DNA from: a virus
Lineage: Duplodnaviria > Heunggongvirae > Uroviricota > Caudoviricetes
Virus record (IMG/VR): IMGVR_UViG_2563366903_000001
Strand: one strand, 5' to 3'
Length of the DNA stretch: 7,412 bases
In this document: positions 742 through 4,255 of the stretch, piece by piece
Position numbering within the stretch: position 1 is the stretch's first letter
Layout of the letters: every line of letters starts with the position of its first letter
Notes under the pieces: generated by a model
Told to the model about the DNA's origin: nothing
Databases searched by the model: none
Seen by the model: only the letters and a program-made list of their open reading frames with translations
Translations under genes and position numbers: made by a program

Positions 742-2679
742 GTGACTCTTAAACGGGCCTGTTCCCTGCTGACGGTGAAATCCTTCAGTGAGGATGAGCG
801 GGTGATCACCGGGATTGCGTCAACGCCTTCTCCGGATCGGGATGGGGACATCCTGGAGCCGGAGGGCGCGGAGTTTGGCAGTGCGATCCCGTTTCTCTGG
901 CAGCATGACCATTCCCGCCCGGTGGGGCAGTGTACGGTGCGCCGGGTCAGCGAAGGGCTGGAAATCACGGCAACACTGGCGAAGCCCGTGCCGGATATGC
1001 CATCGCAACTGGCTGCCCGGCTGGATGAGGCCTGGGCGGCCATTAAGACCGGGCTGGTCAGGGGGCTGTCCGTGGGCTTCCGTCCTCATGAATACACCTT
1101 TCTGGACGGAGGCGGACTGCATTTTCTGCGCTGGGAGCTGATGGAGGTGTCTGCCGTCACCGTGCCCGCGAATGCGGAATGCACCATCCGGACCATTAAA
1201 TCTTACGACCGCCAGTTTTCTGCCGCGTCCGGCAACCGGAAACCGGTGGTGAAAATCGCATCTTCTGCCGGCGCTGCGGCACAGTCAACAACCGTTTTTC
1301 ATAAGGAAAAGACCATAATGAATATTGGCGAACAGATTAAAAGTTTTGAAAACAAGCGTGCAGCACTGGCAGCCTCCCTTGAGGAGGTCATGACCAAAGC
1401 CGCAGAGGAAGGGCGCACGCTGGATGTGGAGGAGGAAGAGCATTACGACAACACCGCAGCGGAAATCCGTCAGGTGGATGCGCACCTGAAGCGTCTGCGT
1501 GAGCTGGAAGCCGGTAAGGCTGCCACGGCACAGCCGGTGAAACAGGCCGGTAACGGGAATGTGGCCGCGGTGGCTTCTGCGCCGGTGATCCGTGTGGAGC
1601 AGAAACTGGATAAGGGGATTGGCTTCGCCCGCTTTGCCAAATCGCTGGCTGCGGCTAAAGGCGTCCGATCTGAAGCCCTGGAAGTGGCCCGTCGTCAGTA
1701 TCCGGATGACAGTCGTCTGCATCATGTCCTGAAATCGGCAGTGGGCGCGGGGACCACCACGGATCCGCAGTGGGCAGGCAGCCTGTCTGAATATCAGGAA
1801 TACGCACAGGACTTTATTGATTACCTGCGTCCGCAGACCATTATCGGGCGATTTGGTCAGGGCGGGATCCCGGCACTTCGTCAGGTGCCGTTCAATATCC
1901 GTGTGCACGCCCAGGTGTCCGGCGGTGCTGCCGGCTGGGTGGGTGAGGGTAAGGCAAAACCCCTGACGAAGTTTGATTTTGAATCCATCACCTTCAGTCA
2001 TGCGAAGGTGTCGGCCATTGCGGTACTGACGGAAGAATTGATCCGTTTTTCCAGTCCGGCTGCTGATGCACTGGTCCGTAATGCGCTGGCGGAAGCGGTG
2101 GTGGCGCGTCTGGACACGGACTTTGTGGACCCGAAAAAAGCCGCAGTGGCAGATGTCTCCCCGGCGTCCATCACCCATGATGTGAAGGGCACGGCATCAA
2201 CCGGTAACCCGGATGCGGATGCAGAGGCTGCGTTTGGACAGTTTGTGGCAGCAAACCTGCAGCCCACCGGTGCGGTCTGGCTGATGTCCAGCACCAATGC
2301 CCTGGCACTGTCCATGCGTAAAAATGCGCTGGGTCAGAAGGAATACCCGGACATGACCCTGCTGGGTGGCTCCTTCCAGGGGCTGCCGGTGATTGTCTCC
2401 CAGTACGTGGGTGACCAGCTGGTGCTGGTGAATGCCCCGGATATTTATCTGGCGGATGACGGCGGCGTGGCAGTGGATATGTCCCGCGAGGCATCACTGG
2501 AAATGCAGTCTGAGCCGACCGGCGACAGTACCACGCCGTCGCCGGTGGAGCTGGTTTCCATGTTCCAGACAGGCAGCGTGGCCATCCGTGCGGAGCGCTG
2601 GATCAACTGGCGTCGTCGCCGTACCGCGGCGGTGGCGGTGATCACCGGAGTGAACTACGGCAGTGCGTCCGGCGGCTGA
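742..2679 (+). CDS. Fusion of prohead protease (HK97 gp4-like, S78/U35 family), delta/scaffold-like coiled-coil domain and HK97-fold major capsid protein, 645 aa
   Basis: N-terminal ~160 aa carry the prohead protease motifs (PDRDGD, LWQHD, GLSVGF, EVSAVTVPAN.E). Residues ~193-300 are a charged helical segment typical of capsid delta domains (MNIGEQIKSFENKRAALAASLEEV...). The C-terminal ~340 aa carry HK97 capsid-like motifs (GEGKAKPLTKFDFESITFSHAKVSAIAVLTEEL). GTG start with a strong SD; third-position GC bias is consistent throughout. Confidence 0.85.
   Translation: MTLKRACSLLTVKSFSEDERVITGIASTPSPDRDGDILEPEGAEFGSAIPFLWQHDHSRPVGQCTVRRVSEGLEITATLAKPVPDMPSQLAARLDEAWAAIKTGLVRGLSVGFRPHEYTFLDGGGLHFLRWELMEVSAVTVPANAECTIRTIKSYDRQFSAASGNRKPVVKIASSAGAAAQSTTVFHKEKTIMNIGEQIKSFENKRAALAASLEEVMTKAAEEGRTLDVEEEEHYDNTAAEIRQVDAHLKRLRELEAGKAATAQPVKQAGNGNVAAVASAPVIRVEQKLDKGIGFARFAKSLAAAKGVRSEALEVARRQYPDDSRLHHVLKSAVGAGTTTDPQWAGSLSEYQEYAQDFIDYLRPQTIIGRFGQGGIPALRQVPFNIRVHAQVSGGAAGWVGEGKAKPLTKFDFESITFSHAKVSAIAVLTEELIRFSSPAADALVRNALAEAVVARLDTDFVDPKKAAVADVSPASITHDVKGTASTGNPDADAEAAFGQFVAANLQPTGAVWLMSSTNALALSMRKNALGQKEYPDMTLLGGSFQGLPVIVSQYVGDQLVLVNAPDIYLADDGGVAVDMSREASLEMQSEPTGDSTTPSPVELVSMFQTGSVAIRAERWINWRRRRTAAVAVITGVNYGSASGG
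1318..2679 (+). CDS. Possible internal in-frame initiation product: delta domain + major capsid protein (453 aa), nested in 742..2679
   Basis: In-frame ATG at 1318 preceded by AAGGA (1303-1307) at 10-nt spacing. The resulting N-terminus (MNIGEQIKSFENKRAALAA...) looks like the usual start of standalone HK97-family capsid proteins. The ATG falls at the protease/delta domain boundary. Hypothesis only. Confidence 0.35.
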   Translation: MNIGEQIKSFENKRAALAASLEEVMTKAAEEGRTLDVEEEEHYDNTAAEIRQVDAHLKRLRELEAGKAATAQPVKQAGNGNVAAVASAPVIRVEQKLDKGIGFARFAKSLAAAKGVRSEALEVARRQYPDDSRLHHVLKSAVGAGTTTDPQWAGSLSEYQEYAQDFIDYLRPQTIIGRFGQGGIPALRQVPFNIRVHAQVSGGAAGWVGEGKAKPLTKFDFESITFSHAKVSAIAVLTEELIRFSSPAADALVRNALAEAVVARLDTDFVDPKKAAVADVSPASITHDVKGTASTGNPDADAEAAFGQFVAANLQPTGAVWLMSSTNALALSMRKNALGQKEYPDMTLLGGSFQGLPVIVSQYVGDQLVLVNAPDIYLADDGGVAVDMSREASLEMQSEPTGDSTTPSPVELVSMFQTGSVAIRAERWINWRRRRTAAVAVITGVNYGSASGG

Positions 2680-2693
2680 GTCTGATAAGGAGG

Positions 2694-2715
2694 ACGGGAG
2701 GCGTGCGCCTCCCGT
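2694..2715 (+). promoter_or_regulatory. Perfect 10-bp inverted repeat ACGGGAGGCG-TG-CGCCTCCCGT (stable GC-rich RNA hairpin), no following U-tract
   Basis: Read directly from the sequence. It starts 15 nt after the capsid stop (TGA 2677-2679), is immediately preceded by AAGGAGG (2687-2693), and is followed 8 nt later by the ATG at 2724. Confidence 0.55.
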
Positions 2716-2723
2716 AACAGGTT

Positions 2724-2945
2724 ATGGCAAAGATCCGATATCTGCATGGTACGCATGATGCCCGGGTCGGGGATATCCGTGATGTGGCACAGCCGTGTGC
2801 GGAGGTGCTGGTTCGCCTGGGAAAGGCGGAGTACATCACGGTGCGACGTCCGGCAGGTCAGAAAAAGAAACGTGATGCGGAGCATGGCGAATGTGGAACC
2901 TTTTACGGCGAACCCGAAAAAACCAGAAATCAGGACGTGACGTAA
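2724..2945 (+). CDS. Hypothetical small protein (73 aa), function unknown
   Basis: ORF between the capsid and portal genes with the same third-position G/C codon bias as its neighbours. The alternative frame here (2746..2940) gives a W/R-rich translation that looks non-coding. No family recognised. Its 3' end overlaps the called portal start by 55 nt in another frame. Confidence 0.5.
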   Translation: MAKIRYLHGTHDARVGDIRDVAQPCAEVLVRLGKAEYITVRRPAGQKKKRDAEHGECGTFYGEPEKTRNQDVT

Positions 2946-4255
2946 GAGAGGCGGGCTGGACCAGCCTGTTTCAGGCGGTGGCTGAGCCCTTTTCCGGCGC
3001 CTGGCAGCAGGGCGTGAAAGCCGATCCTGAAGCCGTCCTCTCCTTTCATGCGGTGTTTTCTTGCATTTCGCTGATATCCCAGGATATCGCCAAAATGCGG
3101 CTGCGTCTTATGCAGACGGATGCGCATGGGATACGCAGGGAAACGCGCCGGGGGGATATTGCCCGCCTCTGTCGTCGTCCCAACGCCCAGCAGAACCGCA
3201 TCCAGTTTTTTGAACTGTGGCTGAACGCCAAACTGCGTCACGGCAATACGGTGGTGCTGAAAATCCGTAACTCCCGGGGGCAGATCAAAGAACTGCGTAT
3301 TCTGGACTGGAGCCGGGTTGAACCTCTGGTGGCGGATGACGGCGAGGTGTTCTACCGCATCACGCCGGACCGGAACTGTGGGATCACTGAGGCGGTGACG
3401 GTGCCTGCCCGGGAAGTGATCCACGACCGGTTTAACTGTTTTTTTCATCCGCTTATAGGATTGCCGCCGGTGTATGCCGCCGGGCTGGCGGCCATGCAGG
3501 GGCATCATATTCAGGAAAATTCGACGTCTTTTTTCAGAAATGGCGGCAGGCCGTCCGGGGTGATTGAGATCCCCGGCAGTATTACGGAAGAAAATGCGAA
3601 AAAACTGAAGAGCAACTGGGACAGCGGGTATACCGGCGAAAATGCGGGTAAAACGGCCATTCTGAGCAACGGGGCAAAATACAACCCCACGACGTTTTCA
3701 CCGGTGGATGCGCAGACGGTGGAACAACTGAAGATGACCGCTGAAATTGTCTGTTCGGTGTTCCGTGTCCCGGCCTACAAGATTGGCGTGGGACAACCGC
3801 CTTCCAGTGACAACGTGGAGGCGCTGGAGCAGCAGTATTATTCCCAGTGCCTGCAGACGCTGATTGAGTCCATTGAACTGTTACTGGATGAGGCGCTGGA
3901 AACGGGGGAAAACGAGAGTACAGAATTTGATGTCACCACGCTGCTGAGAATGGACAGTGAGCGGCGCATGAAAACGCTGGGGGATGCGGTGAAAAATACG
4001 CTTCTCACGCCCAATGAGGCCCGTAAACGGGAGAACCTGCCGCCTCTTGCGGGAGGTGACGCACTGTATCTTCAGCAGCAGAACTACAGTCTGGAGGCGC
4101 TGTCCCGTCGTGATGCCCGTGAAGATCCGTTCGCGTCGTCCGGGAAAAGAGTTTCAGCCGAGCTGCCTGACGGCGCATCTGACGGTAATAAGGCAATCAG
4201 TGAAACAGAGCATGATGTGGTGAAGGCGATGTTCAGGGGGATACTGAAAAAATGA
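2891..4255 (+). CDS. Portal protein (HK97-family portal), 454 aa
   Basis: Portal-like motifs: AVLSFHAVFSCISLISQDIAKMRL, HDRFNCFFHPLIGLPPVYAAGLAA, FFRNGGRPSGVIEIPG, and C-terminal LTPNEARKRENLPPLAGGD. First in-frame ATG after the stop at 2873-2875, with GGAG 8 nt upstream. The exact start is uncertain. Confidence 0.85.
   Translation: MWNLLRRTRKNQKSGRDVREAGWTSLFQAVAEPFSGAWQQGVKADPEAVLSFHAVFSCISLISQDIAKMRLRLMQTDAHGIRRETRRGDIARLCRRPNAQQNRIQFFELWLNAKLRHGNTVVLKIRNSRGQIKELRILDWSRVEPLVADDGEVFYRITPDRNCGITEAVTVPAREVIHDRFNCFFHPLIGLPPVYAAGLAAMQGHHIQENSTSFFRNGGRPSGVIEIPGSITEENAKKLKSNWDSGYTGENAGKTAILSNGAKYNPTTFSPVDAQTVEQLKMTAEIVCSVFRVPAYKIGVGQPPSSDNVEALEQQYYSQCLQTLIESIELLLDEALETGENESTEFDVTTLLRMDSERRMKTLGDAVKNTLLTPNEARKRENLPPLAGGDALYLQQQNYSLEALSRRDAREDPFASSGKRVSAELPDGASDGNKAISETEHDVVKAMFRGILKK

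Follow-up and report, generated by a model that had tools for sequence, protein, structure and literature searches.

A capsid-before-portal head module shared by Stx-type Escherichia coli prophages and their proteobacterial relatives

The HK97/SfV head module comprises an S78 protease, an HK97-fold capsid, an HK97-family portal, and Ad1, head-closure and gp10 proteins, ordered terL, portal, protease, capsid; in phage SfV, which served as a control, the canonical order terS, terL, portal, protease, capsid, Ad1 was seen. A different succession (terS, terL, protease plus capsid, small ORF, portal, adaptor) is found in Pseudomonas PAJU2, Salmonella FSL SP-016, Burkholderia vB_FUBS1 and the Moraxella Mcat phages. 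The systems closest to the DNA considered here are 2851, YYZ-2008, 1717 (Pankowvirus), BP-4795 (Marienburgvirus) and the Sakai Sp6/Sp9/Sp10/Sp12-type prophages. The head-region organisation of the O157 Sakai prophages Sp6, Sp9, Sp10 and Sp12 has been described as 'slightly different' (Asadulghani et al. 2009; PMC2669165).

The window, by which we mean the whole 7,412-nt stretch analysed from virus record IMGVR_UViG_2563366903_000001, is identical to these closest systems in gene order and sizes, with ~2–3% sequence divergence from Stx phages of the 2851/BP-4795 kind. It draws on the same protein families as the HK97/SfV module but differs in order, the window departing from terL, portal, protease, capsid, and in sequence, with portal and terL identities of 24–25% and no capsid similarity detectable by tblastn. 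Along the plus strand, ORFs and domains agree on the succession terL, protease–capsid, small ORF, portal, repeat protein, adaptor, exactly as the original prediction had read it:

1–678, plus strand: 3′ part of terL (last 225 codons, nuclease domain; PF20441, E 5.3e-08)
742–2679, plus strand: ORF of 645 codons for protease, scaffold-like coiled coil and major capsid protein (PF04586, PF05065, TIGR01554, phrog_617)
2724–2945, plus strand: small conserved ORF, 73 codons (phrog_829, E 3.6e-38)
2891–4255, plus strand: HK97-family portal, 454 codons (PF04860, E 5.5e-81; TIGR01537, 353 bits against a cut-off of 112)
4252–5475, plus strand: fibre-like repeat protein, 407 codons (tandem repeat finder; homologues)
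5472–5798, plus strand: Ad1 adaptor
5808–6158, plus strand: head-closure protein
6155–6601, plus strand: gp10-like protein
6598–6942, plus strand: tail terminator

The terL gene runs off the left edge, leaving only its final 225 codons in the window, and its product is 98–99% identical to those of 2851 and BP-4795 and 77% identical to that of FSL SP-016. In the protease–capsid ORF, which begins with GTG and is preceded by AGGAGG at 731–736, Peptidase_S78 (PF04586) matches aa 48–153 (34.1 bits; cut-off 21) and the HK97-type Phage_capsid family (PF05065) matches aa 386–635 (53.1 bits; cut-off 24.2). TIGR01554 also matches the capsid part (78.1 bits; cut-off 27.5) and phrog_617 spans the full length, while TIGR01543, for the protease, reaches 46.6 bits and stays below its cut-off of 59. 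His55 and Ser110, which we take to be the catalytic residues of the S78 protease, are invariant in an alignment of eight sequences. The encoded protein is 99% identical to its counterparts in 2851 and BP-4795 and 49% identical to PAJU2 ORF003, which is annotated as 'prohead protease fused capsid protein'. The neck genes (5472–6942) have Pfam matches to PF05135, PF05521, PF04883 and PF11367, in addition to phrog_40 and phrog_347, and the junction sequences show that most of them are joined by ATGA overlaps.

At the nucleotide level, the window is 95–98% identical to, and collinear with, deposited phages. There are 94 matching records, 77 of which cover at least 80% of the window; they include 2851, YYZ-2008, 1717, BP-4795 and many Stx1a/Stx2c phages, and in each of 20 records listed among the 94 matches, 100% of the window is aligned at 95–97% identity. 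The annotation tables of 2851, YYZ-2008, BP-4795, 1717 and Stx2a_WGPS4 give the same gene order and boundaries. Window-like modules are present in 1,253 of 5,426 complete E. coli genomes (23%), at a median of 6 places per genome, and these copies lie mostly in non-Stx lambdoid prophages. Beyond E. coli, the order is kept in Salmonella FSL SP-016, Pseudomonas PAJU2, Burkholderia vB_FUBS1 and Moraxella Mcat7, as well as in Serratia, Pantoea and Klebsiella prophages. Among 71 species-level loci, 58 were informative in that terL, capsid and portal were all placed, and all 58, drawn from alpha-, beta- and gamma-proteobacteria, run terL, capsid, portal without a counter-example. The partial record of EBPR siphovirus 3, in which genes are unnamed, is consistent with this arrangement (small gene, portal homologue, large downstream protein).

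The module proteins are all collinearly conserved across the relatives, and portal identities are 41–98% within the same-order set compared with at most 29% for canonical-order phages. PAJU2, FSL SP-016, vB_FUBS1 and the Mcat phages show 36–77% amino acid identity to the window; of this group, only PAJU2 and FSL SP-016 carry an extra protein between portal and adaptor, and vB_FUBS1 and Mcat7 differ in having separate protease and capsid genes and in lacking the fibre-like protein. By synteny, a large proteobacterial clade of HK97-fold siphophage modules has the gene order of the window as its standard, with terS ahead of terL. The capsid-before-portal layout is already known and already annotated, and is ordinary in E. 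coli Stx-type prophages and their proteobacterial relatives. Although the order had originally been singled out as a notable departure, the database synteny comparison found it to be common in a well-characterised phage group, which by the prediction's own refutation test makes it lineage-typical.

We put at roughly 0.9 the probability that the window is a head/neck module from a lambdoid, Stx-phage-type E. coli prophage of the 2851/BP-4795 kind with an inherited, clade-standard order rather than a rearranged one, the window containing head and neck genes only. Of the two origins first proposed, a rearrangement or a distinct lineage, the second is borne out and the first is not, the order being inherited and extending well beyond E. 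coli. Lambdoid prophages are mosaic, and a recent rearrangement in this prophage, or a recombination of unrelated modules, that moved the portal downstream of the capsid gene would fit both this mosaicism and the departure from the HK97/SfV canon. Such an event is nonetheless extremely improbable given the one-piece, full-length alignments to more than 1,200 genomes, the recurrence of one order at every informative locus in different species, the terL, capsid and portal identities that fall together with phylogenetic distance, and the conserved overlap junctions. The probability of an assembly chimera is practically nil: many laboratories have contributed finished phage genomes and complete chromosomes that are collinear with the window, its GC content and GC skew continue without a break, and neither the alignments nor these two profiles gave any support for one.

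Two further alternatives concern the junction between portal and repeat protein, where a homopolymer tract distinguishes separate from fused genes:

4236–4240, plus strand: G5 tract within the codons TTC AGG GGG ATA; G5 corresponds to a separate portal and next ORF, G6 to a fusion (allele comparison)

G5 occurs in the window, BP-4795, 1717 and Stx2a_WGPS4, and BP-4795 and 1717 share the window's split form; 2851 and YYZ-2008 carry G6 and therefore, unlike the window, a fused portal. The IMG/VR loci comprise 27 with G5 and 37 with G6. Conceivably, the split portal is a frameshifted pseudogene whose true form is the ~860-codon ORF of 2851, in which case the module would be defective and the repeat protein a dead 3′ half. 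Consistent with this reading are the single portal CDS of 2,580–2,586 nt in 2851 and YYZ-2008, the 859-aa profile phrog_2271, the label 'portal protein, pseudogene' attached to the G5 form in AP012538, and the scoring of the Sp6, Sp9 and Sp12 portals as defective in PMC2669165, a defect not necessarily linked to G5. However, we consider it improbable, because two ORFs are present in 55 of 56 species-level relatives from other species, usually overlapping by 1–14 nt, and because the G5 frame keeps the outgroup portal C-terminus and the ATGA overlap whereas the G6 frame replaces the C-terminus. Also against it are the split form in BP-4795 and 1717, the more diverse flanks of G5, and a downstream ORF that is intact in 17/22 G5 loci compared to 26/29 G6 loci. 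Programmed ribosomal frameshifting on the G tract, producing short and long portals from one allele, is very improbable. A −1 slip on AGG_GGG of the G5 allele would, on reading the sequence, give exactly the 2851-type fusion protein, but no slippery heptamer (X_XXY_YYZ) lies in frame at the junction, the outgroups FSL SP-016 and Klebsiella (AGAGGA, no G run) still retain two ORFs, and a typical ATGA overlap supplies the downstream gene with an ATG of its own.

On outgroup comparison, the split portal and repeat protein (G5) is the ancestral form, from which the single ~860-aa 'portal' of 2851 (G6) arose; the 'pseudogene' annotations of the split form therefore look wrong. It is possible, though unlikely, that the G5/G6 tract acts as a heritable switch between a fibre-like protein that is free and translationally coupled and one tethered to the twelve portal subunits, with both forms viable and differing in virion properties. 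If so, 2851 and YYZ-2008 would be of the tethered type, and BP-4795, 1717 and the window of the free type.

Upstream, the small ORF overlaps the portal start by 55 nt, and equivalently placed homologues occur in FSL SP-016, Serratia, Pantoea, Klebsiella and Mcat7. The outgroup small-ORF stop overlaps the portal ATG (TAATG/TGATG), whereas the E. coli lineage has GAATG at this junction, indicating that the overlapping stop was lost there. Both ends of the portal are conserved in Enterobacterales outgroups, the N-terminus as MWN(P/L)(F/L)R(R/K) and the C-terminus as (A/S)M(I/L/F)RGx(L/M)... followed by the stop.

Within the protease–capsid ORF, conservation points to a second initiation site:

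1303–1320, plus strand: internal SD-like AAGGA (1303–1307) and in-frame ATG (1318–1320, Met193) (conservation)

Met193 is probably the start of a free capsid protein (1318–2679, 453 aa). In alignment, it coincides with the capsid start codon of vB_FUBS1 and Mcat7, where that gene is separate, and its position is occupied by ATG or GTG in 43 of 44 fused ORFs of other species. In a manual count over the regions upstream of this start in fused ORFs, GGAG, GAGG, AGGA or AAGG was present at −18 to −3 in 41 sequences; the comparison rate at other in-frame ATGs is 19.4% (162/836).

Hairpins flank the capsid ORF on both sides:

703–730, plus strand: terminator-like hairpin (703–720) and T-run between terL and the capsid ORF (terminator scan)
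2687–2723, plus strand: AAGGAGG (2687–2693), 9-bp hairpin (2694–2715) and 8-nt spacer, leading to the small-ORF ATG (fold, conservation)

The downstream hairpin, already proposed in the original prediction, is real, with a GC-rich 9-bp stem and a GTGC loop; within 51 nt of context the folding energy is −22.3 kcal/mol (z = −3.29), a value matched by 2 of 200 shuffled sequences. A stable hairpin lies just 3′ of the capsid stop in ~59 of 61 relatives, with unrelated sequences at a retained position, and the 60 nt past this stop have a mean folding energy of −24.3 kcal/mol compared to −17.1 kcal/mol for coding controls (p = 1.5e-18). PAJU2, FSL SP-016, vB_FUBS1 and the Mcat phages all have a hairpin behind the capsid gene. 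By manual count, 21 of 22 Enterobacterales sequences show the layout GGAG(G), hairpin, 6–13 nt, ATG, with stems of at least three distinct sequences; in distant relatives, the hairpin sits upstream of an ordinary SD. An AGG located 3 nt before the small-ORF ATG of the window could act as a weak conventional SD. No U-tract follows the 2694–2715 stem, the tail of which is AACAGGTTATGG; this disqualifies the hairpin as a canonical intrinsic terminator, and the missing T-run explains its absence from the terminator scan list. T-runs are present after the capsid hairpin in several distant relatives. Because a terminator follows the capsid gene in the canonical-order phage SfV too, the hairpin does not result from the capsid-before-portal order, and its only lineage-specific aspect is its position upstream of the portal. 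Hence, of the expression consequence once ascribed to the gene order, the conserved hairpin after the capsid stop stands, while its derivation from that order does not. The terL–capsid hairpin layout, present at 19/62 loci, falls short of being clade-wide: it recurs in Enterobacterales, in Pseudomonas and in some relatives among the beta-proteobacteria, and the overall folding energy does not differ from that of coding controls (p = 0.64).

In phage lambda, C and Nu3 are a nested in-frame pair encoding protease and scaffold, with an internal ribosome-binding site that sets the stoichiometry; T4 genes 38 and 25 have hairpin-bridged ribosome-binding sites; and terminators in the Q-antiterminated lambdoid late operon are mostly read through, which weighs against the scheme that follows. 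The 645-codon ORF may likewise be a nested gene pair with a long and a short product in one frame, here protease–capsid and capsid as conservation suggests. Specifically, the GTG at 742 would yield a protease–capsid polyprotein, allowing the protease to enter the procapsid by co-assembly, and the internal SD and ATG at 1318 would supply most of the capsid protein. The hairpin past the capsid stop may lower or demarcate downstream expression as an attenuator or 3′ stabiliser. In Enterobacterales, where it separates the only good SD from the small-ORF ATG, it may in addition bring the two together, a putative bridging that resembles T4 genes 38 and 25; unlike in that type, the window hairpin may mainly be an attenuator or 3′ stabiliser. 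The small ORF, portal, fibre-like protein and adaptor could form a chain of coupled translation through overlapping stop and start codons (ATGA, TAATG and TGATG at the downstream gene junctions), which would keep the portal low-copy despite its position downstream of the capsid gene. Conservation makes all three elements, internal initiation, attenuation and coupling, probable.

The repeat protein consists of an N-terminal helical segment, tandem repeats and an all-beta C-terminal domain with a CBM5/12-like tip, and its gene has ATGA overlaps at both ends. The tandem repeat finder placed 3.7 copies of a 162-nt (54-aa) unit at 4417–5009; copy number differs between phages (407 aa in the window, 461 aa in BP-4795), and some homologues have collagen repeats in place of the 54-aa units. 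FSL SP-016, PAJU2 and 56 of 71 genome loci encode the homologue as a gene of its own, located after the portal. Modelled with AF2, the last 139 aa reach a pLDDT of 91.8, and the final ~45 aa of this model superpose on chitin-binding domains with an rmsd of 1.1–1.6 Å, none of the matches being at E ≤ 0.001; PF02839 is weak in the window protein (E 3.4e-4, under the curated cut-off). In the annotation of many relatives, this protein counts as the portal's C-terminal half.

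ORF listing and profile searches place all real genes of the window on the + strand. These data bear out the order and coordinates of the original prediction, which had described the head-gene order at 742–4255, with the portal downstream of the capsid gene, as non-canonical. The features are as follows:

1–678, + strand: 3′ end of terL (final 225 codons), with its nuclease domain (PF20441)
742–2679, + strand: protease-capsid ORF, 645 codons, matching phrog_617 along its whole length
2724–2945, + strand: small ORF, 73 codons, phrog_829 (a phrog without known function)
2891–4255, + strand: HK97-family portal (PF04860, E = 5.5e-81; TIGR01537, 353 bits)
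4252–5475, + strand: repeat (fibre-like) protein, 407 codons
Downstream of the repeat protein, + strand: Ad1 adaptor, head-closure protein, gp10-like protein, tail terminator

The ORF at 742–2679 joins an HK97-type S78 prohead protease (aa 48–153) to an HK97-family capsid domain (aa 386–635) by way of a charged coiled coil; neither this fusion nor the repeat protein gave a significant match in a PDB sequence search. Minus-strand ORFs (e.g. 1285–2178 and 7054–7362) are antisense to conserved genes and were taken as spurious, and no known RNA families or tRNAs were found in the window. Two terminator-like hairpins with T-runs (6929–6945 and 6972–6986) lie at the end of, and just past, the tail-terminator gene. 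The start of the major tail subunit differs between deposited annotations, at the window equivalent of 6872 for phages 1717 and Stx2a_WGPS4 and of 7009 for RefSeq 2851.

All 7412 nt align as a single piece, at 95–98% identity, to Stx-converting phages (94 records, 77 of which cover ≥80% of the window), including 2851, YYZ-2008, 1717, JLK-2012 and many Stx1a, Stx2a and Stx2c phages. The annotations of 2851, YYZ-2008, BP-4795, 1717 and Stx2a_WGPS4 have genes, order and boundaries identical to the window, and of 5426 complete E. coli genomes, 1253 carry the module, at a median of six sites each. The head-region organisation of the O157 Sakai prophages Sp6, Sp9, Sp10 and Sp12 has been described as ‘slightly different’ from that of lambda (Asadulghani et al. 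2009, PMC2669165). The gene order is thus lineage-typical, already annotated and ordinary, the outcome that the original prediction had said would refute it. It carries little weight in itself, being the standard arrangement already on record for one of the commonest prophage head modules of E. coli. Two further fused forms occur on single E. coli or Logan contigs, namely P0001 (terL, protease and capsid, 1079 aa) and P0003 (capsid and portal, 784 aa), and probably reflect frameshifts or misassembly, not genuine fusions.

The same architecture extends well beyond E. coli. A tblastn search of the phage collection with the capsid ORF recovered Salmonella phage FSL SP-016 (77% at the amino-acid level), Pseudomonas PAJU2 (48%; its capsid homologue is annotated ‘prohead protease fused capsid protein’), Burkholderia vB_FUBS1 (39%) and Moraxella Mcat phages (37%), all ordered terS, terL, protease and capsid, small ORF, portal, adaptor; prophages of Serratia, Pantoea and Klebsiella have an order identical to the window. 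Scanning a single genome for each species gave 71 loci, drawn from Enterobacterales, Pseudomonas, Rhizobiales, Rhodobacterales, Sphingomonadales, Burkholderiales, Snodgrassella and one Vicinamibacterales MAG. Wherever all three genes could be placed, the order was terL, capsid, portal (58/58), and no locus had a portal between terL and capsid. Portal identity is 41–98% within the set, compared to at most 29% against canonical-order phages such as SfV, PY54 and Cherry; SfV, with terS, terL, portal, protease, capsid and Ad1, served as the canonical-order control. Since the order is shared by all informative loci, and the identities of terL, capsid, portal and adaptor drop together with phylogenetic distance, it marks a large, old clade, and the identity bands imply that the order changed only once. 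Of the two origins originally proposed for the arrangement, a distinct lineage is therefore the one that stands, albeit a common and already annotated one, while a recent or private rearrangement is excluded by the 58 concordant loci and by over 1200 genomes that are collinear with the window along its full length. A chimeric window, also raised at the time, is incompatible with the one-piece alignments to the 94 records and to these genomes. As a separate observation, representatives of the lineage from E. coli, Salmonella, Serratia, Pantoea and Klebsiella carry an HNH endonuclease gene ahead of terS (loci L001, 3798–4163; L068, 3315–3683; L071, 4286–4654; L072, 4159–4527; L074, 4222–4590); HNH–terminase pairing is usual in HK97-like cos phages.

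Comparison across the clade also points to a nested gene pair within the protease-capsid ORF. Protease and capsid are separate genes in vB_FUBS1 and Mcat7; when aligned, both capsid genes begin precisely at the position of Met193 in the window ORF (ATG 1318–1320), an in-frame codon with an SD-like AAGGA (1303–1307) ten nucleotides upstream. Of 44 fused ORFs in other species, 43 have an in-frame ATG or GTG at this position, within a linker whose amino acids are otherwise without conservation. By hand count of the upstream sequences, GGAG, GAGG, AGGA or AAGG is present at –18 to –3 of the internal start in 41, compared to 19.4% (162/836) of in-frame ATGs elsewhere in these ORFs. We consider it somewhat more probable than the contrary (roughly 0.6) that free capsid is made from the internal start, with the full-length product delivering the protease by co-assembly; lambda C/Nu3 is a close analogy.

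The capsid ORF, the most highly expressed structural gene, is flanked in the window by two hairpins. The downstream element, at 2694–2715, has a 9-bp stem and a GTGC loop, and its folding (z = –3.29) upholds its original description as a hairpin. Among 61 relatives, the 60 nt past the capsid stop fold more stably than coding windows (mean –24.3 versus –17.1 kcal/mol; Mann–Whitney p = 1.5e-18), and an obvious GC-rich stem-loop is present in ~59 of them, with unrelated sequences and, in many, a following T-run. This conservation of position argues for function, with a putative role as an attenuator or 3′ stabiliser that would set capsid well above portal. The window hairpin is not a canonical terminator because it lacks a U-tract, and it was not listed by the terminator scan; lambdoid late transcription is antiterminated. 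In Enterobacterales, the layout GGAG(G), hairpin, 6–13 nt and small-ORF ATG recurs in 21 of 22 sequences (hand count), built on no fewer than three distinct stems, and in the window (2687–2726) AAGGAGG lies directly 5′ of the hairpin with the ATG 8 nt 3′ of it. It is therefore possible, by analogy with T4 genes 38 and 25, that the hairpin bridges the SD and the small-ORF start codon, a reading weakened by an AGG located 3 nt upstream of that ATG. The original prediction had linked the hairpin to the capsid-first order. The element itself is real and conserved in position past the capsid gene, but canonical-order SfV also has a terminator after its capsid gene; such a hairpin is a general feature of these modules, and what sets this lineage apart is only that the hairpin precedes the portal.

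Directly before the SD of the capsid ORF, a canonical-looking intrinsic terminator at 703–730 consists of a 7-bp stem (hairpin 703–720) and a T-run. Hairpins between terL and capsid are found in Enterobacterales, Pseudomonas and some beta-proteobacterial relatives and are absent from alpha-proteobacterial ones, and across the clade the folding of this gap does not differ from coding controls (p = 0.64). A clade-wide terminator bracketing the capsid cistron was thus ruled out, its occurrence being confined to gamma and some beta members.

Downstream of the capsid, gene junctions overlap. In outgroups from Salmonella, Serratia, Pantoea and Klebsiella, the small ORF terminates within a TAATG or TGATG that also contains the portal start, whereas in the E. 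coli lineage mutation to GAATG has removed this stop, and the reading frame continues for 55 nt, or 18 codons, into the portal gene (window 2886–2945). ATGA overlaps are present at portal/repeat protein, repeat protein/Ad1 and head-closure/gp10, and the portal overlaps the next gene by 1–14 nt in most species-level loci. Where the capsid gene comes first, capsid/portal stoichiometry could be set jointly by an internal start, a hairpin past the capsid gene and coupling along the genes that follow, and the clade may offer a clean natural example of how this is done. The putative internal capsid start, the position-conserved hairpin, the coupled gene chain and the ancestral split portal junction are comparative by-products of modest use.

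At the last of these junctions, the portal is annotated as one ~860-codon gene in 2851 and YYZ-2008, compared to two ORFs in the window. The sole cause is a tract of five G residues in the window (G5, 4236–4240; counterpart in locus L001, 10236–10241) versus six (G6) in those phages. BP-4795, 1717 and Stx2a_WGPS4 are G5, and both alleles are common, with 27 G5 and 37 G6 among the IMG/VR loci fitting the search pattern. Enterobacterales outgroup portals end in (A/S)M(I/L/F)RGx(L/M)..., overlapping the next ATG exactly as in the G5 frame, and separate portal and downstream ORFs occur at 55 of 56 species-level loci; together these observations show that the two-gene form is ancestral and the fused form derived. 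The ‘pseudogene’ labels given to the split form, as in at least one deposited Stx-phage record (Stx2a_WGPS4, AP012538; ‘portal protein, pseudogene’), are then probably wrong. The same explanation may apply to the ‘defective’ portal scores of certain O157 Sakai prophages, and with an ancestral split form, forecasts of which Stx prophages form particles are possibly too pessimistic. Programmed frameshifting at the tract is unlikely, given that there is no slippery heptamer and that outgroups lack the G run. Rapid, phase-variation-like switching is disfavoured by flanking haplotypes that are mostly class-specific: the classes sort mostly by clade, with greater flank diversity in G5, and the one or two exceptions (loci L046 and L034) could be homopolymer sequencing errors. 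The downstream ORF is intact at 17 of 22 G5 loci versus 26 of 29 G6 loci. The only species-level locus with portal and fibre-like protein in one ORF is that of Candidatus Pantoea communis (L091, ~8184–11909), where 1248 codons include extra sequence between the two homology blocks; this may be an independent fusion or insertion.

The repeat protein looks like a fibrous protein. An N-terminal helical segment is followed by 3.7 copies of a 162-nt (54-aa) tandem repeat (4417–5009), the copy number of which varies among prophages to give ORFs of 353, 407, 461, 515 or 569 aa. In some homologues, collagen repeats take the place of this repeat, alongside a PF02839 chitin-binding-type motif. Pfam matches to TetR_C_35, DUF4244 and FliG_N were set aside as repeat-driven, since no stretch passes alone. 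The placement of the gene directly after the portal is reminiscent of SPP1 gp7 and Mu F, which is no more than a lead; no relationship to either was detected at the sequence level. Its C-terminal domain is modelled as all-beta (pLDDT 91.8), and a Foldseek search with this model gave no match at E ≤ 0.001. Below that threshold, weak matches included phage tail-fibre chains, and the C-terminal ~45 residues can be overlaid on CBM5/12 domains with an rmsd of 1.1–1.6 Å. The ORF is truncated in some draft assemblies, possibly through repeat collapse.
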